Shown in pieces: positions 2,085-25,406 of a stretch of 32,000 nucleotides of DNA. Source of the DNA: Candidatus Saccharimonadota bacterium (GTDB lineage: Bacteria; Bacillota_I; Bacilli_A; Mycoplasmatales; Hepatoplasmataceae). The position numbers were made by a program, and so were the translations under genes. The stretch's first letter is position 1, and each line of letters begins with the position of its first letter. The stretch spans positions 420,001-452,000 of the forward strand of contig AP027131.1 of NCBI GenBank assembly GCA_027925225.1, read 5' to 3'. The notes under the pieces were generated by a model. The model saw only the letters and a program-made list of their open reading frames with translations, was not told the DNA's origin and did no database searches.

Positions 2085-2149
2085 TTTTTCATATTTTAAA
2101 CATAATATAAATATAAAATTTTTAATTTATAATATATGATGATTTAAAA

Positions 2150-3789
<1,640 letters not shown>

Positions 3790-3802
<13 letters not shown>

Positions 3803-5553
3803 CAATAAAATTTGGCCAAAGCGAACATAAAAGAGTTAATTATTTAAATTTTTATTTTGCAGCAGCTTTGTCTTTTCAAAATTTAATAGGAATCAAAATA
3901 AATAATATAGAAAAAATAAATAAAGAATTTTTAAAAAATGAAGTTTACGAAATAGAAAAGAAGGAAACAAATATAAAAAGAGAATTAACTTTTTTTAAAA
4001 ATGGTTTTCCTTTATATTTCGAAAACAAAAATAAGGAAATCGAAGTTACAAATCTTACAAAAAAAATATTAGAAAATGGAGATAAAAAAATATTTAATGG
4101 AAGAACATATTTGGAAAATGTTTTAATTCTTTATTTAATAAAAAAATATCCAGAAAATGAAATTATTAACAATCCCTTTTTTTGTGCTTTAAATTTTGCA
4201 GAAGAAGAAAAATACACAAAAAAGGAATTTATAGATAAAATTTTTAAATTAAATAAAGAGAAAATACAAAATTATTTAGAACAGATTTCGTTAGATGATT
4301 ATATTAATATCTATTTTAAATTTAAATCAGGAAATCCAGAATCTAAAAAAGATTTAGAAATAAAAAAATTTCAAAATAAAAAAAATGAATTAATAGAAGA
4401 ATTAGCAAGAAATGTTTTATCTAAAAAAAATAATCAAGAAATAGTTTTAAATAAACTTTACATTCTTATAAATGAATATATGAAACTTAGAGATTTAAAA
4501 AAAATAAGTATTTTCCCAAAAACATTTAAAAAAATTTTTCAATTAAAAGATAGTGATTTATATAAATTTATTTTAGATTATGAAAAAAAAGATAAACAAA
4601 AATATTTTGATTTAATAAAAAATATGAATTTTAATTATTTAATAGAAAATTTTTATTTTGAAAATAAAAAAGGCGATTATGGAAATTTAATTTGAAAATA
4701 TCTCATTAATACAAACTTTTTTTTAATTAAAGAAGATAAAATTTCTATAAATCCAAAATGTGAAGAATATATAAATGATTTAAAAAATAATTATTATGAA
4801 ATTTTAAAAATAAAACTTGACGATAAAAACATAATAGAAAAATTTAAAAATTTAAATATAAAAAATAAAGATAACAATGATATTTCTGTTAGAGAAATAA
4901 TAAATGAATATTATAATGAAAATTTTTATAATAATTTTTTTGAAATTATTTCACTCGAAGATGAAAAAATAATTAACAAAAAATTAATAAAACTTGGTAA
5001 TGAAAATCAACATATAAATGGAATCTTAGATGCTCCTACAATTTTTGAATTTATAATAAATTTATTTTTTTTCAAATTATTTTATAAAGAAGAAATTTTA
5101 AATATAAATAAAATTTCAGATGAAGAATTAACAAATAATTTCAAAGAAAGTATTAATACTTATTTAACATCAAATTTAATTCCTCAAAGATTTGCAAGCG
5201 GAGGAAGGTCAGATGCAATTTTTAAAAATCAAGAAATTCTAATAGAACCAACTTTACAAATAAAAAGGCAAGTAAAACATGAATTAAATTCAATAACAGA
5301 TCACTTAAAAAAAGTAGGTTATCATTACTCTGTTTTGGTCGCTCCTAAAATTTCAAATGATTTTTTACCACAAGTCATATCTTATAAAGATTATGATTAT
5401 TCTTGAATAATATTACCTTTTAATACAAATATTTTGATTAAAATAAAAGAATCAGATTATTCTACAGATTTATTTAATGAAATAAAAAATGATTTTAAAA
5501 ATTGCAATACATATAAAGAAGTAAGTAATATATTTAAAAAATATAATAATTAA
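3790..5553 (+). CDS. Putative restriction endonuclease partner of the fused MTase (Type IIS-like, possibly AlwI/MlyI/PleI-type)
   Basis: A 587-codon frame-1 ORF, checked codon by codon from 4681 to TAA 5551-5553. TGA codons at 4693 and 5404 are read as Trp. ATG 3790 overlaps the MTase 3' end by 13 nt. The C-terminal region carries FASGGRSDAIFKNQEILIEPTLQIKRQVKHELNSITDHL, a PD-(D/E)xK-like D...E-x-T-L...Q...E pattern. The family assignment is from memory of RE_AlwI-type enzymes and was not searched. Confidence 0.6.
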
Positions 5554-5632: not shown

Positions 5633-7456
5633 ATGAATAATGATAATAGTGTAGAAAGAAGAACATTAAGTTCATTTTTTACAAATGGTAATATTTACAA
5701 AGTTCCTAGCTATCAAAGAAAATATGTATGAGATGAAAATAATACAGAAAAATTATTTAAAGATTTTGAAAATTTAGTTATGAGCGAAAATTCTAGTGAA
5801 ACACTTTATTTAGGAAATATACTTATTAAAAGTGATGAAAATGAAGATAAATGATTAATTGATGGGCAACAAAGAATAACAACTTTACTTTTATTTTTTA
5901 AAGCATTATATGATGATTATTTTAAAAGAGCATACAAGGAAAATAATCATGATAAGGAAATTGAGGAGGAACTTGAAAATTATATTTATCTAAAAGAAGA
6001 TGCCGATAAAAATATAAGACTTAAAATTAAGGATCTTATAAATGAAGAAAAATTTAAATTAATATTTGAAAAAAAAATTAATATTAATACAATTCCAAAT
6101 AAAAAAATAAAAAATTTAAGTCAATTTCATAAAAATTATTTTACTTTTAGAAAATTAATTGATAATTTTTTTAATAAAAATATTGAATTTGATACATATT
6201 CATTTTTAAAAATTTTTAAAAAAATATGAATAATTAAAATTAAATTAATGAAAAATGATGATGAATTAAAAATTTTTGAAACCTTAAATTCTAGAGGAAC
6301 AATATTACAAGCGGTTGATTTAATAAAAAATTTTTATTTCATTTATACCGATAAAATAAAAAACAATGATGAAAATTTAAATAAAAAAACGAATTATAAA
6401 ATAAAACTTTTTTTTGAAAAAATTCTTCCAGAAACAATTTCTTGAAAAGGCGAAAAAACAAAAGAATTTATAAAATTAATAAAAGAATATATTATTTTTA
6501 AATCTTTAATAAGTGAAAATAATTATAATTTTTCATTACCTAAGGAAAAAGATCCACAAGATTTATATGATAAATTTAAGGAAATTGCAGAAAAAGAATT
6601 TAATTATTTAAAAACAAATAAAGATATTGAAAAATCTATTAATGATTTACATAAATTTCTTTTAATGAAAAAAAATTTAAAAAAATATGAAAATATTAAT
6701 AAAAAATATAATTTTGAAAACTTTGAAATTTCACTTATGATATTTAATAAATTATTTACAGGGTCTCAGTTTTTCCCTATAATTGCACAACTAATGTATA
6801 AAGATAATTTATCTATAGAAGATTTAGAATACTTTAATATTAAAAATATAAATGAAGATTTTAAGAAAGCTGTTTTATATATTGAAAAACTAATTGTAAA
6901 AAGAGAATCTGTACAAAAAGGTACTAGATTAATTACAAGAAACGTAAATAAAATAAAAATAAGATCTTATAATGATATAAAAGAAAAATTTAAGGATTTA
7001 TTACCAAATAACAATGATTTTATTGAAGGTTTAAATTTTAATAATATTTATGAAACAATTCCTAGCGATATTTTAAAAGGAATTCTTTGAAGAATAGAAT
7101 TAAATAAATACGATAAAAAAAGCAATGAAAATATTAATTATCATAATGATAAAGATAAATTTACAATTGAGCATATTTTGCCGCAAAAAATTGAGGATAG
7201 TGTTGAATGAAAAAAAGATTTAGGCGATGATTGAAACTCAATTCATGAAAAATATAAAAATTCATTAGGAAATTTAACAATAACTGGAGAAAACAGTGAA
7301 ATGTCAAATAATCCTTTTAGTATAAAAAAAGCACATTTTTCAAATAGCATCATTAAAATGAATAGAGAAATTTCAAAATTAGAAAAATGAAATAAAGATG
7401 AAATTTTAAACAGAAGAAAAGAATTAATAGATATTTGCTTAGAAATTTGAAATTAA
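5633..7456 (+). CDS. GmrSD-family Type IV (modification-dependent) restriction enzyme, DUF262 + DUF1524
   Basis: Frame-2 ORF from ATG 5633 (aaggat lies 8 nt upstream) to TAA 7454-7456. It joins track pieces 6248..6445 and 6665..7090 through TGA=Trp. N-terminal motifs are YKVPSYQRKYVW, LIDGQQRITTL and IFETLNSRGTILQAVDLIKN (DUF262). C-terminal motifs are FTIEHILPQK ... LGNLTITGENSEMSN (DUF1524 His-Me nuclease). Confidence 0.85.
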
Positions 7457-7485
7457 ATATTTTTTATTTAAATATAATTAATTTG

Positions 7486-7926
7486 ATGGAAAAACATAAA
7501 GAAAATGTAACTCTTTTTTACATGATTTATTTTTATTTAAAAAAGACATTTTGTTTTAAAAATTTAATACTAATCTTTGGTCTATTTTTATTATTTGTAC
7601 CTATATATTTTGTATTTAAAGAAATATTGGTTGATGTATTTGAAATTTCAGATAAGATTATATTATTTAATAAATGAACAGTAATTATAATTATGTTTAA
7701 CATATATATAAGTTTTATTTTAAATTACCTTTATTCATATTTAAAAAGAGCTGAAATTAATATTAACAGTCCTTATAAAAATACAATACCTAAAGTTATA
7801 ATAATTTACTCAATTTGATTTATTTTTTTATGATTCTTATGATTATATTTTATATTTCGACATCTGAATATAAATATAATGAAAATGGAACAAAAAGTGA
7901 TTCTTATAATAGAAATTTTGGTTTAA
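7486..7926 (+). CDS. Hypothetical membrane protein, probably the 5' part of a gene frameshifted at a T7 tract
   Basis: ATG 7486, frame 1, with TGA read as Trp. It has hydrophobic stretches (LILIFGLFLLFVPIYFVF, TVIIIMFNIYISFIL, VIIIYSIWFIF). After the T7 tract (7823-7829) the frame turns into implausible sequence and stops at TAA 7924-7926. Confidence 0.4.
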
Positions 7927-8192
7927 TTATATTTTCATCATTTTTTAGTTTTTTATTAATAAATATAGGTGGACTATTAATAAGCAAAAATAATTCTTTT
8001 ATTTATTTAATGTTTATATTCATTATAAATTGTTGTATTTTGTTTTGAAGTCTTGAAATAATGGCTACCCAAAAAAATGATGGAGAAACTTTTTTAAGAA
8101 TAGGTGAAATAGAGTTTTTATTATCAATAATATTTATTATTGCAAACTTAATAAAACGTTTTATTATATTTAAAAAACAGAAATCAAATTAA
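7815..8192 (+). CDS. Hypothetical membrane protein, probably the 3' part of the same frameshifted gene
   Basis: Frame 0 is open from 7794 (TTG 7815, ATG 7830) to TAA 8190-8192. It has hydrophobic segments FGLIIFSSFFSFLLINIGGLLI and FIYLMFIFIINCCILFW. Its upstream end is closed by TAA 7791-7793. Confidence 0.4.
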
Positions 8193-9636: not shown

Positions 9637-11373
9637 ATGAAAATAATTAAAGGAATAAGTATATCTTCTGGTTTTTCCATTGGTAAATCTTTTTTATTAA
9701 AAGAAGAAAATATAAAAATAAAAGAAGAAAATACAAGAGATAGTAAAAATGAAATAAAAAAATTAAATAATGCAATTAAAGAAGCAAATTCACAGATTAT
9801 AAAAATTAAAAAAAATGTTGAAAAAAAACTTAATGAAGAAGAAGCAAAAATTTTTGATGCACACTTAGAAATTTTAAATGACCCTGAGCTTTTTGAAAAA
9901 ACAAAAGAAATAATTATAAATAATAATAAAAGTGCAAGTTTTGCTTTTAAAAAAGCAAGTGATGAAATTAAAAAAATTTTTGAAACAATAGATAATGAAT
10001 ATATGAGAGAAAGAGTTCTTGATATAACCGATGTTTCAAATCGTTTAATAAAAATATTAGAAGGAATTGAAATAAGAGATCTTTCTCTTATAAGTGAAGA
10101 AACAATAATTATAGCCCGCGATTTAACGCCTTCTGAAATTTCACAATTAGATTCTAGATTTGTAAAAGGTTTTGTCACAGAAATTGGAGGAACCACTTCA
10201 CATTCAGCAATTATTGCTCGAACTTTAGGAATTCCGGCAATTTCTGGAATTGGAAAAAATATCAATTTAATAAAAAATAATGAAAAAGTACTATTAAATG
10301 CAAAAGATGGAATTTTAATTTTAGATCCCCAGAAGGAAGAAATTGAAAATTTTGAAGCAAAAAAAAATAAATATGAAGAAATAAAAAAAGAAGAAGATAA
10401 ATTTATAAATATAAGTCCCACTACAAAAGATAATTGAAAAACAAAAATAGCTGTAAATATTGGAAATTTAGAAGATTTAAACAATTATAAAAAATTAAAT
10501 ATTGATGGTGTTGGTTTATTTCGTACAGAATTTTTATATATGAACTCAGATAAATGACCAACAGAAGAAGAACAATTTAATGTATATAAAAAAATCCTTG
10601 AAACAGTAAATATAAATAATGAAACAGTTGTTATTAGAACATTAGATATTGGAGGAGATAAAAAATTAAAATATTTTAATTTTCCAAAAGAAGAAAATCC
10701 TTTTTTAGGTTATCGTGCTATAAGATTAAGCTTAGACAAAAAGGATATTTTTATTACACAAATTCGTGCATTATTGCGTGCATCAAAATTTGGAAATCTT
10801 GCAATTAATCTTCCAATGATTGCAACAATCGATGAATTAAAAGAAGTCAAAAAAATAATAAAAAATACTGAAAATGAATTAATTAAAGAAGGACAAAAAA
10901 TAAATAAATATCAGATTGGTATGATGGTAGAAGTACCGTCAGTTGTTGAGCTTGCTGACAAATTTATAAAATATGTAGATTTTTTTTCAATTGGAACAAA
11001 TGATTTAATTCAATATACTTTTGCAGTAGATAGATTATCAGAAAAAGTTGCTTATTTATATCAACCTTTAAATCCTACAATTTTAAGAATGATTTATAAG
11101 ATAATCAAAACTTCTCATGAAAATAATAAGTGAACTGCAATTTGTGGTGAACTTGCAAGAGAAACAAAACTGATACCTATATTTATTGCTATGGGATTAG
11201 ATGAATTTTCTATGTCTGCTTCGTTTATCTTGAAAATACGTAGAATTTTTTCAAAAATTAGCAAAAAGGAAAGCGAAAAAATATTAGAACAAATTTTAGA
11301 TTCCGAAACAGAAAAAGAAGTAAGCAATTTAATTGATAAATTTTTTAAAGAAAATAATATTTCTTATTATTAA
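9637..11373 (+). CDS. ptsI: PTS Enzyme I (phosphoenolpyruvate-protein phosphotransferase)
   Basis: A frame-1 ORF of 578 aa that joins 9637..10437, 10774..11133 and 11191..11373 through TGA=Trp. It has the active-site His region [18 protein letters not shown], the PEP-binding region GTNDLIQY, and the catalytic Cys in [12 protein letters not shown]. Confidence 0.95.
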
Positions 11374-11397
11374 ATAATATATTCATAAAATATAAAT

Positions 11398-11806
11398 ATG
11401 TTTTGTATAAAATTAAAAAAATTTTCTATTTTTTTTCTTTTTTAAGAAGTGTTGGGAATCTTTATTTTAAAAATAAAGATTCTTTTAATTATCAAAATAA
11501 TCCTGAAGGTAATATATATATATATATATAAATCAAAATTTATTGAAAAAAATGGTAATGAATACACTTATGAAATAAAAGGATTAAATGATGAGACAAG
11601 TTATACATTTTATTCACTAGAAAATACAAAACTTTCAATAAACGATAGAACAAATCCAATTGATGAAGAAATAATATTAGAAGAAAATTTAGGAATTGAT
11701 TCATCCTTTTATTATTGGTATCTTTATTCTTATAAGAATTTTAAATAGAAATAAAAGAGAAAAAAGAATTTAATGAATTATTAAACGAAGATATAAAATC
11801 TAAATA
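11398..11806 (+). pseudogene. Decayed, internally deleted remnant of the arrayed surface-protein family
   Basis: ATG 11398 opens a signal-peptide-like frame that stops after 15 codons at T-rich tracts. The family N-terminus (GNLYFKNKDSFNY) sits in another frame, abutting a (TA)9 tract. That tract joins directly to the last family module (KSKFIEKNGNEYTYEIKGLNDETSYTFYSLENTKLSIN...). A further out-of-frame deletion removes the FLIFKTEKTKIP..TM segment. The family 3' end ...gaagatataaaatctaaataa is retained at 11786-11806. Confidence 0.65.
11512..11530 (+). repeat. (AT)9A dinucleotide tract at the deletion junction of the remnant copy
   Basis: Direct read: gaaggtaatatatatatatatatataaatcaaa. The homologous site in intact copies reads gaaggtaatacatataaatcaaa (e.g. 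15185-15207). Confidence 0.9.
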
Positions 11807-11880
11807 AATTCTTAATCTTATTAAAGATACAAAAAACAATAATTATAACAAAAAAATAAAAAATATTATATAATTTATTT

Positions 11881-13680
11881 ATGATAAGATTAAAGAATTT
11901 ATATTTTTTGTTTTCTTTTTTTATAATTTTTACTTTTTTTTGAGGTAGCGGTAATCTTTATTTTAAAAATAAAGATTCTTTTAATTATGAAAATAATTCT
12001 TCTTTACAAGATGTTAATGATTTAAATAATCCTTATATTGAAAAAAATGGTTTTGAAATAAACAGCTGAGAGGCAGAAACTTCCTCTGTAATTTTTACTT
12101 TAACTATTGTAGGTGATTGAATAGTTAAACCTATAAATGTTTCACTTTATAATGATGAAGAATTAATTTCTGTAACCGCAAACAATATAAGCTCTCATGT
12201 TATTGATACAGATAATAATGAAGTAGAATATGGATATAGAATACAAGGATTAGATATTGCCAATAGCAATGAATACACTTTTTATTCTTTAGATAATACA
12301 AATTTAGCAATAGAAGATAATGGCGATTCTATTGATGATCAAATTTTGCTTAGCGAAGAATTGAATGTTACAAATGAACTTACATTTAGTTTAAGTACTA
12401 CTAATAATGCTTATACTAGTGATAATAATAGTAGTGGTAAAGGAGAAGTAGGAATATTTAGAACTTCTAATAAAGATGTTGTTTTTAGCATTTTAATATC
12501 AGACAATTGAGCTGTTCAAGACAGTTTACGTCTTATTTTGCGGCGTAATTTAAATGGAGTTGTTTCTAAGTTTAATGTTAATGCTAATTTATTATATGAA
12601 GAAGATTTAGAGGGTGAATTTACTAGATTTTATTATGTTATTACTGATAATACTAGTCATATAGTAGCAGGCACAAGTTATAAATTTTTTGTTGATACAA
12701 TTTATGCATCAGCTTGTCTAGCATTAGGAGAATCTACTAATGTAGTAAAAGATATTGCAGTTGACAATAATTCTTTTTCCTTTGAAAATCCTTACATAGT
12801 GGAAAATAGCTTTGAAATTTTAAATGATTCAACTGATTATTCAATAAAATTTCAAATAGGTTTAATAAATAATCAACATAAAGATTTTGACACTTCTTCA
12901 CCATTAAATGTGACACTAAAAGATATAGAAGGAAATAATTATTCAACAACTGCAAATTATGTAAGCGTGGGTTCAGAAAGTAATACTTATATTTATGAAA
13001 TAACAGAACTTGAAAATAATAAACCTTTAAATATTAGCACTAATTATTCTATTTTTTCAATAGATAATGAATGACTTGCTGTTGGAAGTAATATAAATGA
13101 TATTGATAATGAAATTTTAATAGAAGATGATTTGGGCGCAGAAGGGAATTTTACAACTGCTAATGCTTATATTATAGAAAATGGTTTTAAAATTGTTGAA
13201 TATAATGATACATCTGTAAAATATGCAATAACTGTAGAAGGGTGAGAAAATGATTATAAAAATTATGAAAATGAAATTGATGTAAGATTAATTTCTGAAG
13301 ATAATTCCGAAGGTGAAATATATCAATCAAAATTTATTGAAAAAAATGGTAATGAATACACTTATGAAATAACAGGATTAAATGAGGAGACAAGTTATAC
13401 ATTTTATTCACTAGAAAATACAAAACTTTCAATAAATGATAAAGCAACGCCAATCGATGAAGAAATAATCTTAGAAGAAGATTTAGGAATTTATTCATCC
13501 TTCTTAATATTTAAAACAGAGAAAACAAAAATCCCAAGTTATGTTTGAATAATATTAGCAATAATAATTATGTTAATAATTATTATTGGTATCTTTATTC
13601 TTATAAGAATTTTAAATAGAAATAAAAGAGAGAGAGAAGAGTTTAATGAATTATTAAACGAAGATATAAAATCTAAATAA
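11881..13680 (+). CDS. Arrayed surface protein, copy A (intact, 599 aa): signal peptide, 4 modules, C-terminal TM anchor
   Basis: Frame 1 from ATG 11881 to TAA 13678-13680, with only TGA (Trp) internal stops. N-terminus MIRLKNLYFLFSFFIIFTFFWGSG has no Cys lipobox. C-terminus is ...FKTEKTKIPSYVW-IILAIIIMLIIIIGIFILIRIL-NRNKREREEFNELLNEDIKSK. It contains track ORF 12538..13074. Confidence 0.85.
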
Positions 13681-13753
13681 CTTCTTAATCTTATTAAAGA
13701 TACAAAAAATGATCATTATAACAAAAAAATAAAAAATATTATATAATTTATTT

Positions 13754-15555
13754 GTGATAAGATTAAAAAATTTATATTTTTTGTTTTCTTTTTTTATAAT
13801 TTTTACTTTTTTTTGAGGTGGCAATAATCTTTATTTTAAAAATAAAGATTCTTTTAATTATGAAAATAATTCTTCTTTACAAGATGTTAATGATTTAAAT
13901 AATCCTTATATTGAAAAAAATGGTTTTGAAATAAACAGCTGAGAGGCAGAAACTTACTCTGTAATTTTTACTTTAACTATTGTAGGTGATTGAACAATTG
14001 AACCTATAAATGTTTCACTTTATAATGATGAAGAATTAATTTCTGTAACTGCAAGCAATATAAGCTCTCATGTTATTGATACAGATAATAATGAAGTAGA
14101 ATATGGATATAGAATAGAAGGATTAGATATTACTAATAGCAATGAATACACTTTTTATTCTTTAGATAATACAAATTTAGCAATAGAAGATAATGGTGAT
14201 GCTATTGATGATCAAATTTTGCTTAGCGAAGAATTGAATGTTACAAATGAACTTACATTTAGTTTAAGCACTACTAATAATGCTTATATTAGTGATAATG
14301 GTAATGGTCAAGCAGAAATAGAAATATTAAGAACTTCTCTAGTCAATATGTTGTTTTTAGTCTTTTAATATCAGACAACTGAGCTGTTCAAGATAAATTA
14401 TATCTTCATATAAGTCGCGTTAAGTCTCAAACTTCCTCTGCTTTTAGTATATACAGTTATTTTTTATTTGAGGAAGATTTAGAGGGCGAATTTAATAAAT
14501 TTTATTATTTTATTGATGCTAATGATGCTAGTGCAATGGTTGCAGGTAAAAGTTATACTTATCATTTTAAAGAAATTTATTCAATTTCTTACTTAGCATT
14601 AGAATCTAATAGAGCAATAAAAACTATTCCAATAGGAGGTAATAGTTTTTATTTTGAAAGTCCTTACATAGTAGAAAATAATTTTGAAATTTTAAATGAT
14701 TTAACTGATTATTCAATAAAATTTCAAATAAGTGTAGTAAATAATGATTCTGGAGATTTTGATCCTTCTTCACCATTAAATGTGACACTAAAAGATATAG
14801 AAGGAAATAATTATTCAACAACTGCAAATTATGTAAGTGCGGGTTCAGAAAGTAATACTTATATTTATGAAATAACAGAACTTGAAAATAATAAACCTTT
14901 AAATGTTAGCACTAATTATTCTATTTTTTCAATAGATAATGAATGACTTGCTGTTGGAAGTAATATAAATCCAATTGATTTAGAAATCTTAATTACTGAT
15001 CAATTAAATGGTGATGGAAATTTTAAAACTGCTAATGCTTATATTTTAGAAGAAGGTTTTAAAATTGTTGAATATAATGATACATCTGTAAAATATACAA
15101 TAACTGTAGAAGGATGAGAAAATGATTATAAAAATTATGAAGAAAATGAAATTTATGCAAAATTAATTTCTGAAGATAATGCTGAAGGTAATACATATAA
15201 ATCAAAGTTTATTGAAAAAAATGGTAATGAATACACTTATGAAATAACAGGATTAAATGATGAGACAAGTTATACATTTTATTCACTAGAAAATACAAAT
15301 CTTTCAATAAATGATAAAGCAGCACCAGTTGATGAAGAAATAATATTAACAGAAGATTTAGGAATTGATTCATCCTTCTTAATATTTAAAACAGAGAAAA
15401 CCAAAATTCCAAATTATGTTTGAATAATATTAGCAATAATAATTATGTTGATAATTATTATTGGTATCTTTATTCTTATAAGAATTTTAAACAGAAATAA
15501 AAGAGAAAGAGAAGAGTTTAATGAATTATTAAACGAAGATATAAAATCTAAATAA
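13754..15555 (+). pseudogene. Arrayed surface protein, copy B, disrupted by a net +2 frameshift near 14339-14347
   Basis: GTG 13754 (frame 2) reads normally until acttct|ctagtcaatatgttg, where other copies have acttct|aataaagatgttg. It then stops at TAA 14366-14368. The homologous reading continues in frame 1 (open from 14305; first ATG 14536 = track ORF 14536..14946) to TAA 15553-15555. The footprint is 1802 nt against 1800 in intact copies. Confidence 0.75.
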
Positions 15556-15576
15556 AGAATGTTATATAATTTATTT

Positions 15577-17376
15577 ATGATAAGATTAAAAAATTTATAT
15601 TTTTTGTTTTCTTTTTTTATAATTTTTACTTTTTTTTGAGGTAGCAGTAATCTTTATTTTAAAAATAAAGATTCTTTTAATTATGAAAATAATTCTTCTT
15701 TACAAGATGTTAATGATTTAAATAATCCTTATATTGAAAAAAATGGTTTTGAAATAAAAAGTTGAGAAGCAGAAACTTCCTCTGTAATTTTTACTTTAAC
15801 TATTGTAGGTGATTGAATAGTTAAACCTATAAATGTTTCACTTTATAATGATGAAGAATTAATTTCTGTAACTGCAAGCAATATAAGCTCTCATGTTATT
15901 GATACAGACAATAATGAAGTAGAATATGGATATAGAATACAAGGATTAGATATTACTAATAGCAATGAATACACTTTTTATTCTTTAGATAATACAAATT
16001 TAGCAATAGAAGATAATGGTGATTCTATTGATGATCAAATTTTACTTAGCGAAGAATTGAATGTTACAAATGAACTTACATTTGATTTAAGTACTACTAA
16101 TAATGCTTATACCAGTGATAGTGCTAATAACGGTCAAGGAGAAGTAAAAATATTAATAACTTCTAATAAAAATGTTGTTTTTAGCATTTTAATATCAGAC
16201 AACTGAGCCGTTCAAGACAAATTATATATTAATATTCAGCGTAATTGAACTGGAAGTGTTCTTAGGTTTAATGTTTATGCTAATTTATTATATGAAGAAG
16301 ATTTAGAGGGTGAATTTACTAATTTTTATTATGTTATTACTGATAATAATAATAATATAGTACCAGGTACATATTATAGTTATAAGGTTCATTATGTTTA
16401 TTCGCCAGCTTATCTAGCATTAAGAGAATCTAGTAATGTAGTAAAAGATATTGTAATAGACACTAATACTTTTTACTTTGAAAGTCCTTACATAGTGGAA
16501 AATAGCTTTGAAATTTTAAATGATTCAACTGATTATTCAATAAAATTTCAAATAGGTTTAATAAATAATCGCCATAAAGATTTTGATCCTTCTAAATCCT
16601 TAAATGTAACATTAAAAGATATAGAAGGAAATAATTATTCAACAACTGCAAATTATGTAAGTGCGGGTTCAGAAAGTAATACTTATATTTATGAAATAAC
16701 AGAACTTGAAAATAATAAACCTTTAAATGTTAGCACTAATTATTCTATTTTTTCAATAGATAATGAATGACTTGCTGTTGGAAGTAATATAAATGATATT
16801 GATAATGAAATTTTATTAGAAGATGATTTGGGAGCAGAAGGTAGTTTTACAACTGCTAATGCTTATATTTTAGAAGAAGGTTTTAAAATTATTGAGTATA
16901 ATGATACATCTGTAAAATATACAATAACTGTAGAAGGATGAGAAAATGATTATAAAAATTATGAAAATGAAATTGATGTAAGATTGATTTCTGAAGATAA
17001 TTCTGAAGGTGATATATATCAATCAAAATTTATTGAAAAAAATGGTAATGAATACACTTATGAAATAACAGGATTAAACGATGAGACAAGTTATACATTT
17101 TATTCACTAGAAAATACAAAACTTTCAATAAATGATAAAGCAACGCCAATTGATGAAGAAATAATATTAACAGAAGATTTAGGAATTGATTCATCTTTCT
17201 TAATATTTAAAACAGAGAAAACCAAAATTCCAAATTATGTTTGAATAATATTAGCAATAATAATTATGTTAATAATTATTATTGGCATAATTATTCTTAT
17301 AAGAATTTTAAATAGAAATAAAAGAGAAAAAAGAGAGTTTAATGAATTATTAAACGAAGATATAAAATCTAAATAA
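15577..17376 (+). CDS. Arrayed surface protein, copy C (intact, 599 aa)
   Basis: Frame 1 from ATG 15577 to TAA 17374-17376. It includes track ORFs 16495..16770 and 16984..17244, joined by TGA=Trp. The architecture matches copy A, with a unique central cassette. Confidence 0.85.
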
Positions 17377-17450
17377 CTTCTTAATTTTATTAAAGATATA
17401 GAAAAACAATAATTATAACAAAATAATAAAAAATATTATATAATTTAGTT

Positions 17451-19226
17451 ATGATAAGATTAAAAAATTTATATTTTTTGTTTTCTTTTTTTATAATTTT
17501 TACTTTTTTTTGAGGTAGCAGTAATCTTTATTTTAAAAATAAAGATTCTTTTAATTATGAAAATAATTCTTCTTTACAAGATGTTAATGATTTAAATAAT
17601 CCTTATATTGAAAAAAATGGTTTTGAAATAAACAGCTGAGAGGCAGAAACTTACTCTGTAATTTTTACTTTAACTATTGTAGGTGATTGAACAGTTGAAC
17701 CTATAAATGTTTCACTTTATAATGATGAAGAATTAATTTCTGTAACTGCAAGCAATATAAGCTCTCATGTTATTGATACAGATAATAATGAAGTAGAATA
17801 TGGATATAGAATAGAAGGATTAGATATTACTAATAGCAATGAATACACTTTTTATTCTTTAGATAATACAAATTTAGCAATAGAAGATAATGATGATGTT
17901 ATTGATGATCAAATTTTACTTAGCGAAGAATTGAATGTTACAAATGAACTTACATTTGATTTAAGCACTACTAATAATGCTTATACTAGTGATAATAATA
18001 GTAGCGGCAAAGGAGAAATAGAAGTATTAAGGACTTCTAATAAAGATGTTGTTTTTAGTGTTTTAATATCAGACAATTGAGCTGTTCAAGACAGTTTATA
18101 TCTTCATATTGAGCGTCATTGAAGTGGAAGTGTTTCTAGATTTAGTGTTTATGCTAATTTATTATATGAAGAAGATATAGGGGGTGAATTTACTAAATTT
18201 TATTATGTTATTCATGATACTTCTGGAGCAATAGAACCAGGTACATATTATAATTATAGAATTGAGTATATTTATTCAACAGCTCATCTAGCATTAGGAG
18301 GATCTACTAATGTAGCACAAAATATTACAATAGACACTAATATTTTTTACTATAACAGTCCTTATATAGTAAATAATAGTTTTGAAATTTTAAATGATTC
18401 AACTGATTATTCAATAGAATTTCAAATAGGTTTAATAAATAATAGCCATGCAGATTTTGACGCTTCTTCACCATTAAATGTGACACTAAAAGATATAGAA
18501 GGAAATAATTATTCAACAACTGCAAATTATGTAAGCACGGGTTCAGAAAGTAATACTTATATTTATGAAATAACAGAACTTGAAAATAATAAACCTTTAA
18601 ATGTTAGCACTAATTATTCTATTTTTTCAATAGATAATGAATGACTTGCTGTTGGAAGTAATATAAATGATATTGATAATGAAATTTTAATAGAAGATGA
18701 TTTGGGCGCAGAAGGGAATTTTACAACTGCTAATGCTTATATTATAGAAAATGGTTTTAAAATTGTTGAATATAATGATACATCTGTAAAATATGCAATA
18801 ACTGTAGAAGGGTGAGAAAATGATTATAAAAATTATGAAAATGAAATTGATGTAAGATTAATTTCTGAAGATAATTCCGAAGGTGATATATATCAATCAA
18901 AATTTATTGAAAAAAATGGTAATGAATACACTTATGAAATAACAGGATTAAACGATGAGACAAGTTATACATTTTATTCACTAGAAAATACAAAACTTTC
19001 AATAAATGATAAAGCAACGCCAATTGATGAAGAAATAATATTAACAGAAGATTTAGGAATTGATTCATCCTTCTTAATATTTAAAACAGAGAAAACCAAA
19101 ATTCCAAGTTATGTTTGAATAATATTAGCAATAATAATTATGTTAATAATTATTATTGGCATAATTATTCTTATAAGAATTTTAAATAGAAATAAAAGAG
19201 AAAAAGAGAGTTTAATGAATTATTAA
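17451..19226 (+). CDS. Arrayed surface protein, copy D (591 aa; cytoplasmic tail altered by an A6->A5 frameshift)
   Basis: Frame 0 from ATG 17451. All modules and the TM helix are intact. The poly-A run is A5 at 19201-19205, against A6 in copies C, E, F and G. This shifts the tail to ...NRNKREKESLMNY, stopping at TAA 19224-19226 instead of the family stop at 19247-19249. Confidence 0.75.
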
Positions 19227-19270
19227 ACGAAGATATAAAATCTAAATAAAGGATATTATATAATTTATTT

Positions 19271-21070
19271 ATGGTAAAATTAAAAAATTTATATTTTTTG
19301 TTTTCTTTTTTTATAATTTTTACTTTTTTTTGAGGTAGCGGTAATCTTTATTTTAAAAATAAAGATTCTTTTAATTATGAAAATAATTCTTCTTTACAAG
19401 ATGTTAATGATTTAAATAATCCTTATATTGAAAAAAATGGTTTTGAAATAAACAGCTGAGAGGCAGAAACTTCCTCTGTAATTTTTACTTTAACTATTGT
19501 AGGTGATTGAATAGTTAAACCTATAAATGTTTCACTTTATAATGATGAAGAATTAATTTCTGTAACCGCAAACAATATAAGCTCTCATGTTATTGATACA
19601 GATAATAATGAAGTAGAATATGGATATAGAATACAAGGATTAGATATTGCCAATAGCAATGAATACACTTTTTATTCTTTAGATAATACAAATTTAGCAA
19701 TAGAAGATAATGGCGATTCTATTGATGATCAAATTTTGCTTAGCGAAGAATTGAATGTTACAAATGAACTTACATTTAGTTTAAGTACTACTAATAATGC
19801 TTATACTAGTGATAATAATAGTAGTGGTAAAGGAGAAGTAGGAATATTTAGAACTTCTAATAAAGATGTTGTTTTTAGCATTTTAATATCAGACAATTGA
19901 GCTGTTCAAGACAGTTTACGTCTTATTTTGCGGCGTAATTTAAATGGAGTTGTTTCTAAGTTTAATGTTAATGCTAATTTATTATATGAAGAAGATTTAG
20001 AGGGTGAATTTACTAGATTTTATTATGTTATTACTGATAATACTAGTCATATAGTAGCAGGCACAAGTTATAAATTTTTTGTTGATACAATTTATGCATC
20101 AGCTTGTCTAGCATTAGGAGAATCTACTAATGTAGTAAAAGATATTGCAGTTGACAATAATTCTTTTTCCTTTGAAAATCCTTACATAGTGGAAAATAGC
20201 TTTGAAATTTTAAATGATTCAACTGATTATTCAATAAAATTTCAAATAGGTTTAATAAATAATCAACATAAAGATTTTGACACTTCTTCACCATTAAATG
20301 TGACACTAAAAGATATAGAAGGAAATAATTATTCAACAACTGCAAATTATGTAAGCGTGGGTTCAGAAAGTAATACTTATATTTATGAAATAACAGAACT
20401 TGAAAATAATAAACCTTTAAATATTAGCACTAATTATTCTATTTTTTCAATAGATAATGAATGACTTGCTGTTGGAAGTAATATAAATGATATTGATAAT
20501 GAAATTTTAATAGAAGATGATTTGGGAGCAGAAGGGAATTTTACAACTGCTAATGCTTATATTTTAGAAGAAGGTTTTAAAATTGTTGAGTATAATGATA
20601 CATCTGTAAAATATACAATAACTGTAGAAGGATGAGAAAATGATTATAAAAATTATGAAAATGAAATTGATGTAAGATTAATTTCTGAAGATAATTCCGA
20701 AGGTGAAATATATCAATCAAAATTTATTGAAAAAAATGGTAATGAATACACTTATGAAATAACAGGATTAAATGAGGAGACAAGTTATACATTTTATTCA
20801 CTAGAAAATACAAAACTTTCAATAAATGATAAAGCAACGCCAATCGATGAAGAAATAATATTAACAGAAGATTTAGGAATTGATTCATCCTTCTTAATAT
20901 TTAAAACAGAGAAAACCAAAATTCCAAGTTATGTTTGAATAATATTAGCAATAATAATTATGTTAATAATTATTATTGGCATAATTATTCTTATAAGAAT
21001 TTTAAATAGAAATAAAAGAGAAAAAAGAGAGTTTAATGAATTATTAAACGAAGATATAAAATCTAAATAA
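19271..21070 (+). CDS. Arrayed surface protein, copy E (intact, 599 aa)
   Basis: Frame 2 from ATG 19271 to TAA 21068-21070. It contains track ORF 19928..20464, whose protein is identical to 12538..13074 of copy A. Confidence 0.85.
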
Positions 21071-21091
21071 AGGATATTATATAATTTATTT

Positions 21092-22895
21092 ATGGTAAAA
21101 TTAAAAAATTTATATTTTTTGTTTTCTTTTTTTATAATTTTTACTTTTTTTTGAGGTAGCGGTAATCTTTATTTTAAAAATAAAGATTCTTTTAATTATG
21201 AAAATAATTCTTCTTTACAAGATGTTAATGATTTAAATAATCCTTATATTGAAAAAAATGGTTTTGAAATAAACAGCTGAGAGGCAGAAACTTACTCTGT
21301 AATTTTTACTTTAACTATTGTAGGTGATTGAACAGTTGAACCTATAAATGTTTCACTTTATAATGATGAAGAATTAATTTCTGTAACCGCAAGCAATATA
21401 AGCTCTCATATTATTGATACAGATAATAATGAAGTAGAATATGGATATAGAATAGAAGGATTAGATATTACTAATAGCAATGAATACACTTTTTATTCTT
21501 TAGATAATACAAATTTAGCAATAGAAGATAATGGTGATGTTATTGATGATCAAATTTTACTTAGCGAAGAATTGAATGTTACAAATGAACTTACATTTGA
21601 TTTAAGTACTAATAATAATGCTTATACCAGCGATAATAATAGTAGCGGTAAAGGAGAAATAGGAATATTTAGAACTTCTAATAAAGATGTTGTTTTTAGT
21701 ATTTTGATATCAGACAACTGAGCCGTTCAAGACAATTTACATCTTATTTTGCGGCGTAATTTAAATGGAAATATTTTTACGTTTAGTGTTTATGTTAATT
21801 TATTATATGAAGAAGATTTAGAGGGTGAATTTACTAAATTTTATTATGTTATTAATGATGGTGATAGCAATTCAATAGAACCAGGTACAAATTATAAATT
21901 TTTTGTTGATACAATTTACTCATCAGCTTATCTAGCATTAGGAGAATCTACTAATGTAGTAAAATCTATTGCAATTGACAATAATTCTTTTTCCTTTGTG
22001 AGTCCTTACATAGTGGAAAATAGTTTTGAAATTTTAAATGATTCAACTGATTATTCAATAAAATTTCAAATAGGTTTAGTAAATGATCAAAATGGAGATT
22101 TTGATACTTCTTCACCATTAAATGTGACACTAAAAGATATAGAAGGAAATAATTATTCAACAACTGCAAATTATGTAAGCACGGGTTCAGAAAGTAATAC
22201 TTATATTTATGAAATAACAGAACTTGAAAATAATAAACCTTTAAATGTTAGCACTAATTATTCTATTTTTTCAATAGATAATGAATGACTTGCTGTTGGA
22301 AGTAATATAAATGATATTGATAATGAAATTTTAATAGAAGATGATTTGGGCGCAGAAGGGAATTTTACAACTGCTAATGCTTATATTATAGAAAATGGTT
22401 TTAAAATTGTTGAATATAATGATACATCTGTAAAATATGCAATAACTGTAGAAGGGTGAGAAAATGATTATAAAAATTATGAAAATGAAATTGATGTAAG
22501 ATTAATTTCTGAAGATAATTCCGAAGGTGATATATATCAATCAAAATTTATTGAAAAAAATGGTAATGAATACACTTATGAAATAACAGAGATTAAACGA
22601 TGAGACAAGTTATACATTTTATTCACTAGAAAATACAAAACTTTCAATAAATGATAAAGCAACGCCAATTGATGAAGAAATAATATTAACAGAAGATTTA
22701 GGAATTGATTCATCCTTCTTAATATTTAAAACAGAGAAAACCAAAATTCCAAGTTATGTTTGAATAATATTAGCAATAATAATTATGTTAATAATTATTA
22801 TTGGCATAATTATTCTTATAAGAATTTTAAATAGAAATAAAAGAGAAAAAAGAGAGTTTAATGAATTATTAAACGAAGATATAAAATCTAAATAA
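21092..22895 (+). pseudogene. Arrayed surface protein, copy F, +1 frameshift at ~22589; predicted product lacks the membrane anchor
   Basis: Frame 2 from ATG 21092 (contains track ORF 21749..22288). At 22586-22594 it reads acagagatt where all other copies read acaggatt. The frame then runs ...YEITEIKRWDKLYILFTRKYKTFNKW and stops at TAA 22655-22657. The homologous frame (0) continues to the family stop at 22893-22895. Confidence 0.75.
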
Positions 22896-22916
22896 AGAAT
22901 GTTATATAATTTATTT

Positions 22917-24716
22917 GTGATAAGATTAAAAAATTTATATTTTTTGTTTTCTTTTTTTATAATTTTTACTTTTTTTTGAGGTGGCAATAATCTTTATTTT
23001 AAAAATAAAGATTCTTTTAATTATGAAAATAATTCTTCTTTACAAGATGTTAATGATTTAAATAATCCTTATATTGAAAAAAATGGTTTTGAAATAAACA
23101 GCTGAGAGGCAGAAACTTACTCTGTAATTTTTACTTTAACTATTGTAGGTGATTGAACAGTTGAACCTATAAATGTTTCACTTTATAATGATGAAGAATT
23201 AATTTCTGTAACTGCAAGTCATATAAGCTCTCATATTATTGATACAGATAATAATGAAGTAGAACATGGATATAGAATAGAAGGATTAGATATTACTAAT
23301 AGCAATGAATACACTTTTTATTCCTTAAATAATACAAATTTAGCAATAGAAGATAATGGCGATGCTCTTGATGATCAAATTTTAATTAGTGAAGAATTGG
23401 ATGTTACAAATGAACTTACATTTGATTTAAGTACTACTAATAATGCTTATGCAAGCGATAATAATAGTAGTGGCAAAGGAGAAATAGTAGTATTTAGAAC
23501 TTCTAATAAAGATGTTGTTTTTAGTGTTTTAATATCAGACAATTGAACTGTTCAAGACAGTTTATATCTTCATATTCAGAAGAATTGACCTGGAACTTTT
23601 ACTAAGTTTAGTGTTAATGCTAATTTATTATATGAAGAAGATATAGGGGGTGAATTTACTAGATTTTATTATGTTATTCCTGATATTTATGGTGCAATAG
23701 AACCAGGTACATATTATAGTTATAGAATTGATTATATTTATTCAACGGCTCGTCTAGCATTAGGAGGACCTACTAATGTAGTAAAAAATATTACAATAGA
23801 CACTAATGTTTTTTACTTTGACAGTCCTTACATAGTGGAAAATAGTTTTGAAATTTTAAATGATTCAACTGATTATTCAATAAAATTTCAAATAGGTTTA
23901 ATAAATAATAGACATAAAGATTTTGATACTTCTTCACCATTAAATGTGACACTAAAAGATATAGAAGGAAATAATTATTCAACAACTGCAAATTATGTAA
24001 GCACGGGTTCAGAAAGTAATACTTATATTTATGAAATAACAGAACTTGAAAATAATAAACCTTTAAATGTTAGCACTAATTATTCTATTTTTTCAATAGA
24101 TAATGAATGACTTGCTGTTGGAAGTAATATAAATGATATTGATAATGAAATTTTAATAGAAGATGATTTGGGCGCAGAAGGGAATTTTACAACTGCTAAT
24201 GCTTATATTATAGAAAATGGTTTTAAAATTGTCGAATATAATGATACATCTGTAAAATATGCAATAACTGTAGAAGGGTGAGAAAATGATTATAAAAATT
24301 ATGAAAATGAAATTGATGTAAGATTAATTTCTGAAGATAATTCCGAAGGCGATATATATCAATCAAAATTTATTGAAAAAAATGGTAATGAATACACTTA
24401 TGAAATAACAGGATTAAACGATGAGACAAGTTATACATTTTATTCACTAGAAAATACAAAACTTTCAATAAATGATAAAGCAACGCCAATTGATGAAGAA
24501 ATAATATTAACAGAAGATTTAGGAATTGATTCATCCTTCTTAATATTTAAAACAGAGAAAACCAAAATTCCAAGTTATGTTTGAATAATATTAGCAATAA
24601 TAATTATGTTAATAATTATTATTGGCATAATTATTCTTATAAGAATTTTAAATAGAAATAAAAGAGAAAAAAGAGAGTTTAATGAATTATTAAATGAAGA
24701 TATAAAATCTAAATAA
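22917..24716 (+). CDS. Arrayed surface protein, copy G (intact, 599 aa, GTG start)
   Basis: Frame 0 from GTG 22917 to TAA 24714-24716. It contains track ORF 23835..24110. Only TGA codons interrupt it. Confidence 0.8.
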
Positions 24717-24878
24717 AGAAAATAATAAAAGTAAAAAAGTGTTTTATAAATTTAATTTTATTAATAAAAATTAGTAATAATTGTCTTCTAAAAAAAGAAA
24801 AGTATTAAAATTAATTTGGGTTAAAATTAGGATTTTATTTTTAAAATTCTATGTTCCCTTATTTATTTTTATTTTTTT

Positions 24879-25406
24879 ATGAAAATTATGAAAAAAAAAG
24901 AAAAAGATATTCTTGTTTACTCACCAGCAGATGGGAAAATTGTAGATATTAAAAAAGTTCCTGATGAAACTTTTTCACAAGAAATGATAGGAAAGGGTAT
25001 TGCAATAAAAATAAATTCTCCTTATATTTATTCACCAATAAAAGGAAAAGTAGAAGCCGCTTTTAGAACAGGTCATGCTTATGGTATTAAAACTAAATAT
25101 GGACCTTCAATACTATTACATATAGGCGTTGATACTGTCGCTTTAAATGGCGAAGGTTTTCTAAGGTTAATCATGCAAGGAGAAAAAGTAAAACCAAAAA
25201 GTAAATTAGCAAGAGTTAATTGAGAAATACTCAAAAAAGCAAAATCTTCAGAAACATTAGTAATTGCAACTAATGATTCAATGGAGGGCTACGAAATAGA
25301 AATGGTTGCTAAAATTGGCCAAAAAGTAACAAAAGATGATGTTCTCTTCAAAATAATAGAAAAAAAAGAAAAAGATAAAAAAGAGGAAAAAAAAGATGGA
25401 AATTAA
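24879..25406 (+). CDS. crr: PTS glucose-family EIIA component
   Basis: Frame 0 from ATG 24879 (alternative ATG 24888) through TGA 25221 (Trp) to TAA 25404-25406. EIIA-Glc motifs: VPDETFSQEMIGKGIAI, the two-His site FRTGHAYGI and LLHIGVDTVALNGEGF. Confidence 0.88.

Follow-up and report, generated by a model that had tools for sequence, protein, structure and literature searches.

A tandem array of mosaic genes for a predicted surface protein in 'Candidatus Hepatoplasma vulgare' and the case for sequence exchange between its copies

The window analysed here is a stretch of 32,000 nucleotides (nt) of contig AP027131.1, which a protein search assigns to the mollicute 'Candidatus Hepatoplasma vulgare' (HPAVJP locus tags; genome 662,108 bp). 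Its positions 11881–24716 are occupied by seven full-length head-to-tail genes, which we call A to G and which follow a decayed eighth unit, copy 0. The best explanation of this locus, to which we assign a probability of about three in four, is a lineage-specific tandem array whose eight units have been exchanging sequence by homologous recombination. The exchange would take the form of non-reciprocal gene conversion, with tracts ranging from tens of nt to more than 1.2 kb and passing also between non-adjacent copies, while unequal crossing-over would probably set the copy number and have spread the short type of junction between units. Conversion would keep the signal, the anchor and modules 1, 3 and 4 of the encoded protein nearly uniform (concerted evolution) and reshuffle their few alleles, and module 2 would stay highly diverged, with a ratio of nonsynonymous to synonymous substitution rates (dN/dS) of about 1 or more. 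The outcome would be a row of co-linear genes that have a common scaffold and differ in their module-2 surfaces, and copies that carry a frameshift may still serve as sequence donors.

The host of H. vulgare is the woodlouse Armadillidium vulgare (PMC10928387), and the window is very AT-rich (15–29% guanine plus cytosine). A list of open reading frames (ORFs) made with translation table 11 yields only short ORFs between 11.8 and 24.7 kb, in which the genes are fragmented; when the same region is read with genetic code 4, seven successive open frames of ~606 codons appear. The use of code 4 is supported because the conserved tryptophan of the enolase motif DWDGF is written TGA, and all 19 tryptophan codons counted in housekeeping genes (19/19) are TGA as well. 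By repeat analysis, the genes are ~1.82 kb long with a start-to-start spacing of 1,820–1,875 nt, and together they make up ~2% of the 662-kb genome. The copies are 83–100% identical to one another, and the units are 88–100% identical outside the module-2 cassette. An intact copy encodes ~599 amino acids (aa), which comprise a hydrophobic N-terminus, four modules of ~125 aa that open with a (P/A)YI..(G/S)F motif, a C-terminal transmembrane helix and a basic tail. The positions and the state of the individual units are listed in Table 1.

Table 1. Array units, spacers, cassettes and flanking genes (window coordinates)
Feature	Position	Strand	Description
ptsI (enzyme I of the phosphotransferase system, PTS), upstream flank	9637–11373	+	Pfam PEP-utilisers_N, PEP-utilizers and PEP-utilizers_C on the identical protein P0011
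Copy 0, decayed eighth unit	11446–11807	+	5' signal/linker part and final ~100 codons joined by a (TA)n run; transmembrane segment shortened by another deletion
Long-type spacer before A	11808–11880	+	53 nt + 21 nt; alignment gap columns 1831–1883, and sequence
Long-type spacers elsewhere	13681–13753 (A-B); 17377–17450 (C-D)	+	same type as that before A
Promoter-like matches	11845–11874; 13718–13747; 17415–17444		ATAACA-18-TATAAT
Copy A	11881–13680	+	intact, 599 aa (= protein P0001); module-1 type a, module-4 type 1; A/B-type C-terminal tail
Copy B	13754–15555	+	GTG start; frameshifted; most divergent; b/2 alleles; first 258 nt identical to G
Copy C	15577–17376	+	intact; a/2 alleles; unique cassette
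Copy D	17451–19249	+	b/1 alleles; A6-to-A5 near 19200, early stop at 19226, cytoplasmic tail truncated
Copy E	19271–21070	+	intact; clearest mosaic
Copy F	21092–22895	+	b/1 alleles; +1 frameshift (extra A at 22590) where the sequence is otherwise identical to D and G
Copy G	22917–24716	+	GTG start; intact; b/1 alleles; cassette related to D
Module-2 cassettes	A 12420–12904; B 14293–14776; C 16116–16600; D 17990–18474; E 19810–20294; F 21631–22118; G 23456–23940	+	hypervariable
crr (PTS EIIA), downstream flank	24879–25406	+	follows the array

Copy 0, whose translation is KSKFIEKNGNEYTYEIKGLNDETSYTFYSLENTKLSIN, is 61–68% identical to the other units at their 3' ends. Every start codon of the array is preceded by a TATAAT box, the end of which lies 6 nt upstream, and the presence of a start codon and a TATAAT box in each copy is compatible with individual, maybe leaderless, transcription. 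The spacers are of two types. Most junctions consist of a 21-nt part alone, and an extension of 53 nt is found only after copy 0, A and C, in keeping with the spacer types that a sequence-only reading of this region had mentioned; the long spacer and its −35-like box accordingly precede only A, B and D. No terminators, significant hairpins or structured RNA were found in the spacers, the folding z-scores of which range from −1.4 to +0.4.

That reading had also claimed that N-terminal and C-terminal segment alleles occur among the copies in all four combinations. Exact string matching confirms the observation. Module 1 of type a, which is marked by acttcctctgta, gattgaatagttaaacc and atacaagg, is present exclusively in A, C and E, and type b exclusively in B, D, F and G; type 1 of module 4 belongs to A, D, F and G and type 2 to B, C and E, the diagnostic strings of each being found in no other copies. 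The resulting combinations are a1 (A), a2 (C and E), b1 (D, F and G) and b2 (B). Other segments divide the copies differently again, just as had been stated: the start codon context is ATGATAAGA in A, C and D, GTGATAAGA in B and G, and ATGGTAAAA in E and F, and the cassettes of A and E show 0 differences, those of A and F 50 and those of D and G 44, with B and C unique at 72–133.

The clearest exchange tract emerges from exact string comparison, in which A 11896–13136 is identical to E 19286–20526 over 1,241 nt, at a distance of 7.4 kb. This tract is flanked by differences on both sides (5 sites before and 19–20 after) and runs through the cassette, where other pairs of copies differ at 44–133 sites. 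A multi-unit segmental duplication (A-B-C-D to E-F-G) was considered as the source of the A–E identity and ruled out, as B and F, and likewise C and G, differ at 119–196 sites. Copy E can be followed from one partner to the next along its length: its leader, start codon and 5' end are those of F (19250–19472; alignment columns 1–223), it equals A at columns 37–1282, carries five or six linked B/C-type sites in a patch at 20527–20632 (columns 1283–1388), equals A again at 20633–20859 (columns 1389–1619), and ends in a tail that equals F from 20846 and also C from ~20929, with columns ~1606/1689 to the stop codon identical to D, F and C. The path from A-like to C-like, back to A-like and then to D-like that had been described for the 3' third of this copy is thus recovered in the pairwise tracts. 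In F, the cassette too is mosaic, with some segments like A and others like D/G. Furthermore, the 258 nt that B and G have in common at their 5' ends are identical even though the two copies lie 9 kb apart and B is the most divergent of the seven.

The alignment of A to G spans 1,830 columns and contains 103 parsimony-informative biallelic sites, which fall into 27 different splits, 13 of them with at least three sites each; a seven-taxon tree accommodates only four splits. In the four-gamete test, 2,517 of the 5,253 site pairs (48%) are incompatible, and the Hudson-Kaplan minimum number of recombination events (Rm) is 41 for the whole gene. Incompatibility is lower among neighbouring sites than among permuted sites, which amounts to spatial clustering, and a permutation test of the pairwise homoplasy index (PHI) type gives p<1e-4 overall and p=5e-5 without the hypervariable module. 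The conflicting splits are carried by 3–14 adjacent sites each, for example five sites for BCE in a span of 69 nt and six for AB|CDEFG in a span of 48 nt. Neighbour-joining (NJ) trees of successive segments conflict with one another at high bootstrap values: E groups with F at columns 1–200 (100%), with A at columns 201–1050 (100%), with B and C at columns 1301–1400 (99%) and with A again at columns 1401–1700 (98%), and A groups with B at columns 1701–1830 (100%). A triplet test of the 3SEQ type reached its permutation floor for E, with A and F/D/G as parents, and for A, F, D and G. The sequence-only reading had inferred recombination from the four-gamete pattern and had named congruent segment phylogenies as the contrary outcome; the phylogenies being incongruent, its interpretation is supported.

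The same pattern could in principle arise without exchange, by serial duplication and independent divergence in which recurrent or parallel mutation in a fast-evolving AT-rich gene mimics the four gametes. We therefore compared the observations with 300–500 runs of a simulation without recombination, in which the copies duplicated and diverged along the best NJ tree under strongly heterogeneous rates. Such runs produce mean proportions of 17–24% incompatible pairs and, outside the cassette, maximum Rm values of 16–18, so that Rm alone is not decisive there, because the observed value of 14 falls inside the simulated range. Clustering is also weak within module 2 (PHI-type p~0.04), where much of the incompatibility could reflect multiple hits. 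The proportion of incompatible pairs, however, reaches at most 31% (whole gene) and 47% (outside the cassette) in the simulations, compared to 48% and 52% in the data, and both the number of distinct splits and the number of informative sites exceed those of every simulation. Considering also (i) the spatial clustering that persists when module 2 is left out, (ii) the blocks of adjacent sites on which the conflicting splits rest and (iii) the 1,241-nt tract of zero differences across the cassette, independent divergence is contradicted by the four-gamete, segment-tree, simulation and PHI-type results alike, and we regard it as extremely improbable.

The modules differ sharply in their rates. 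In module 2 (codons ~179–314), 189 of the 490 columns are variable, the mean dN/dS is 1.14 (0.63–1.99 for individual pairs) and dS is 0.19, compared to a dN/dS of 0.2–0.8 and a dS of 0.06–0.10 in the other modules. Variable sites are spread nearly equally over the three codon positions, and the majority base at variable positions is A at 75, T at 44, G at 35 and C at 24 of them, which represents no adenine bias. This pattern fits a scaffold that is homogenised by conversion and a module 2 under relaxed or diversifying selection.

A variable cassette bordered by conserved sequence is also what a programmed system would display, be it an expression site supplied by silent cassettes (as in MgPar and vlhA), an inversion or promoter switch (as in vsp, vsa and vpma) or a diversity-generating retroelement (DGR). 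The three frameshifted copies and the decayed copy 0 could act as silent donors in such a system, and the restriction of the long spacer with its −35-like box to A, B and D is a further point in its favour. However, all seven copies are full length, each with a start codon of its own and the same TATAAT box, copy 0 alone being truncated, and no recombinase or reverse transcriptase genes are present among the ORFs of the 32-kb window. The only inverted repeats in it are AT-rich self-complementary stretches that code for transmembrane segments, no simple-sequence tract was found upstream of the starts or at the promoters, and the N-terminus MIRLKNLYFLFSFFIIFTFFWGSGNLYF contains no lipobox cysteine, anchoring being instead predicted to occur through the C-terminal transmembrane helix. 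DGR-type mutagenesis was rejected, as the window holds no reverse transcriptase ORF and the substitutions are not adenine-specific and affect all codon positions; invertible elements were rejected on account of the nature of the inverted repeats. A programmed system is thus very unlikely. A search for tRNA genes, which could have signalled an integration site, found none. In the recombination reading, the machinery of the exchange is something that we infer; the text of the genome papers and one supplement make no mention of recA or recombination.

The protein would be type-I-like, that is, a surface protein with an N-terminal hydrophobic signal or anchor in addition to its C-terminal helix. 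A full-length AlphaFold model, although of modest confidence (predicted local distance difference test, pLDDT, of 67), is all-beta between two terminal helices and matches tandem fibronectin type III (FnIII) arrays and bacterial immunoglobulin (Ig)-like adhesins with E values of 6e-7 to 1e-5 at low template-modelling (TM) scores. A model of a single module, derived from an alignment of 23 modules, is a beta-sandwich with a pLDDT of 90.9. A diverged paralogue in the same window, P0008 (3–2084), gives matches to fn3 (23.3 bits, cut-off 25) and Pur_ac_phosph_N (25.7 bits, cut-off 30). The modules are therefore described as predicted beta-sandwiches of FnIII/Ig-like appearance and are not assigned to an FnIII or Ig-like family, because the single-module model resembles FN3 and cytokine-receptor domains just loosely. 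A variable adhesin or a surface coat at the host gut epithelium is the likely role.

Several observations weigh against this picture of a recombining surface-protein array. On the side of the protein, the array product matches no Pfam family above cut-off, the similarity of the single-module model to FN3 and cytokine-receptor domains is weak (TM 0.39–0.47, E>=0.016, with none at E<=0.001), and both expression and surface location are predictions from sequence. On the side of the data, the array is known from one low-coverage, Nanopore-based metagenome assembly, and the mosaic is read from its consensus, not from single reads. The metagenome-assembled genome (MAG) of H. vulgare was built with Flye from ~15x Oxford Nanopore (ONT) R9.4.1 reads and polished with Medaka and then with POLCA and 38x Illumina reads (PMC10928387). 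Its authors had to repair a chimeric consensus at the rRNA and tRNA loci of this MAG, in which Illumina reads indicated 42 structural variants, the highest number among the MAGs of that study (PMC10928387). Some variants, together with the frameshifts of D and F, could thus be consensus errors in a 12.8-kb array of 90–100% identical repeats.

Taken to its limit, this argument states that the assembly and polishing of near-identical repeats created the mosaic, or that the true copy number differs. Polishing with 150-nt Illumina reads that map to multiple copies would favour such errors, and frameshifts are present in three of the seven full-length copies (B, D and F). Those of D and F fall in stretches common to several copies, which short reads polish poorly, and they could for this reason be sequencing errors, in D a homopolymer error. 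The frameshift of B, a duplication of the dinucleotide TC at 14336–14337, is probably real, because it lies inside the unique cassette of B, where short reads can be placed uniquely. Unlike single-base errors, the mosaic is hard to attribute to the consensus. The ONT reads used for the MAG were all longer than 5 kb and had an N50 of 13.8 kb (PMC10928387), so that most would cover at least two divergent cassettes and fix the register of the repeats. The conflicting splits are blocks of linked sites common to two to five copies and not scattered noise, and E differs from A at ~25 sites outside their common tract and hence is not a pasted duplicate. None of the unique housekeeping genes of the window is disrupted. 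Finally, no homologue of the array family was detected in H. crinochetorum, the co-resident species to which the reported chimeras are due. Given the long reads, the multi-site blocks between copies and the missing co-resident homologue, we judge an artefact unable to explain the main pattern and, overall, unlikely. The locus is nonetheless a cautionary case, as arrays of this kind in low-coverage long-read MAGs need validation at the level of reads before evolutionary inference.

Recombination tests are blind to the location of the donor, and the exchange could have taken place mainly between the genomes of H. vulgare strains, by DNA uptake or transfer; the structural variants in the reads could then represent co-existing variants of the array. 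For nearly every patch, however, a perfect or near-perfect donor exists within the array itself (A to E for 1,241 nt, G to B for 258 nt, F to E at both ends), D, F and G could serve as in-array donors for each other, and the array family is almost absent from public data, with no outside donors known. We consider exchange mainly between genomes decidedly unlikely as the source of the mosaic, although it is compatible with recombination between the copies of one array, and the two are not mutually exclusive.

The array (flanks 11374–11445 and 24717–24878) interrupts the ptsI-crr-ptsH unit, which is compact in relatives. The nearest public PtsI is 85% identical and is encoded by a sister lineage (Logan contig L003, run ERR14127475), where the gene order GmrSD, pgi, ptsI, crr, ptsH, fba, eno, pfk, pyk is syntenic with the window and crr follows ptsI after 132 nt (L003 7976–8107) without an array between them. 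In H. scabrum, ptsI, crr and ptsH are likewise adjacent and lack an array. Its absence from this site in both the sister lineage and H. scabrum makes the array a lineage-specific insertion and expansion in the ptsI-crr spacer, which, judged by these comparisons, would be young and have arisen since the lineage separated from its nearest sampled relative. A segment of ~80 nt upstream of crr, which contains AAGTATTAAAATTA(A/G)TTTGGGTTAAAA, is conserved between the window and the sister lineage, and crr probably retains its own control region.

Homologues of the array protein are scarce. An exhaustive profile search returned 21 related proteins among 1.84 billion representatives; of ten that were looked up, nine come from Logan read-run assemblies only, and the tenth has an NCBI record. 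When GTDB genomes were scanned with copy A, 138 pattern matches but 0 confirmed relatives were obtained. Among collinear relatives, the best is a lone gene with three modules in the sister lineage; its identity is 39%, and the gene after it is unrelated. As the closest relative of the array protein is 39% and that of PtsI 85% identical, the putative surface protein evolves far faster than its housekeeping neighbours. The possibility that the sister lineage's 1,963-bp contig is a collapsed tandem repeat was rejected, since there is no overlap between the two ends of the contig and the next gene is a different one. Family members in the sister lineage (ERR14127475; contigs L001, L002, L003 and L005) are P0007 (1,011 aa), P0133 (492 aa), P0136 (808 aa), P0010 (441 aa) and P0134 (494 aa).

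The diverged member P0008 extends past the window start and shares 35% identity with copy A. One whole module has been duplicated in it, in tandem and in frame (360 nt, 97% identical; 739–1422). Its C-terminal ~200 aa are near-identical to those of a paralogue elsewhere in the genome (P0009/HPAVJP_3550), and this near-identity suggests that exchange may also occur among dispersed members of the family.

Upstream of the PTS genes, the window encodes a methylase and, next to it, a small defence island. The ORF at 2147–3802 specifies a fused DNA methyltransferase of 550 aa with an N6_N4_Mtase domain (aa 29–226) and a D12-class N6-adenine methyltransferase domain (aa 243–515). It contains a perfect (AG)15 repeat at 3232–3261 that encodes 'ERERERERE', and gain or loss of repeat units would cause a frameshift inside the second domain, which makes the product a candidate phase-variable methylase of a phasevarion-like kind. 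The island beside it consists of an ORF of 587 aa without a Pfam match (3790–5553) and a GmrSD-type (DUF262/DUF1524) restriction endonuclease (5633–7456); in the sister lineage (L003), GmrSD is conserved at the equivalent position. Two overlapping frames of 176 and 132 codons (code 4), located at 7396–8192 between the GmrSD gene and pgi, encode very hydrophobic peptides and may represent one frameshifted membrane-protein gene or two small genes.

Hepatoplasmas line the woodlouse digestive gland. Because it takes up such a share of the genome, is of recent origin and combines a homogenised scaffold with a module at a dN/dS of about 1 or more, the array is a strong candidate for a surface that faces the host, phages or competitors. 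A bolder and rather doubtful proposal is that the array is an active diversification device, in which frequent segmental conversion, involving expressed as well as frameshifted copies, would continually make new module-2 surfaces of this presumed beneficial gut ectosymbiont within a single host. If so, a system resembling antigenic variation would be kept without adaptive immunity, with selection imposed, in place of antibodies, by variable recognition molecules of the host, by phages to which the protein serves as a receptor, or by rivalry with the co-resident H. crinochetorum over sites of attachment. The array offers a concrete locus for asking whether surface variation by gene conversion, as in vertebrate pathogens, operates in symbionts of animals that lack antibodies.

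Several recombining surface-gene families invite comparison with the array. The Neisseria opa genes form modular HV1/HV2 mosaics among paralogues. As in the array, they are full-length paralogues of the expressed type, in which hypervariable and framework segments reassort and give all allele combinations; unlike it, they reside at dispersed loci, their products are beta-barrel proteins of the outer membrane, and a pentanucleotide repeat in the leader, which the array lacks, makes them phase-variable. Mycoplasma genitalium mgpB/mgpC with MgPar and M. synoviae vlhA undergo segmental gene conversion from silent copies. These, too, are mollicute surface or adhesin genes whose variable segments are moved between homologous copies by recombination, but they rely on one expression site and on truncated promoterless donors that are used unidirectionally, whereas the array consists of seven complete genes with a start codon and a −10 box. 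Lipoprotein clusters are known from other mollicutes, namely vsp of M. bovis, vlp of M. hyorhinis, vsa of M. pulmonis and vpma of M. agalactiae. Being clustered multigene families for surface proteins of wall-less bacteria, with conserved 5' ends, variable bodies and chimeras made by recombination, they parallel the array, which in turn has none of their lipobox cysteines, internal short tandem repeats and invertase or promoter-homopolymer switches. Concerted evolution of tandem surface paralogues is seen in the lpl lipoprotein cluster of Staphylococcus aureus and the vomp array of Bartonella quintana. There as here, near-identical genes stand head to tail, their number and sequence shaped (in the array, probably) by unequal crossing-over and gene conversion, and with variable regions set in a homogenised framework, in spite of unrelated protein families and hosts, the host of the array being an invertebrate without antibody-based immunity. 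The opa genes are covered by a general review (PMC4534519), and the vlhA case is described both there and in PMC2825196.

The array can also be compared with other genes of the Hepatoplasmataceae, which have three to four giant repetitive beta-sandwich ORFs per genome, the units of H. vulgare having resisted modelling (PMC10928387). They are from the same genus, lineage-specific and arranged in tandem clusters, with predicted Ig-like or beta-sandwich repeats and a proposed part in host adhesion (PMC10928387), and one protein of 1,011 aa, HPAVJP_3270 (P0006), has the same module type as the array genes. The text and one supplement of PMC10928387 make no mention of the seven-copy array of ~600-aa proteins, its mosaicism or its hypervariable module. 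The array is devoid of the defining features of expression-site, lipoprotein-switch and DGR systems. By analogy, it would work in the manner of the known recombining surface-gene families, among which a phenomenon of this kind is unsurprising.

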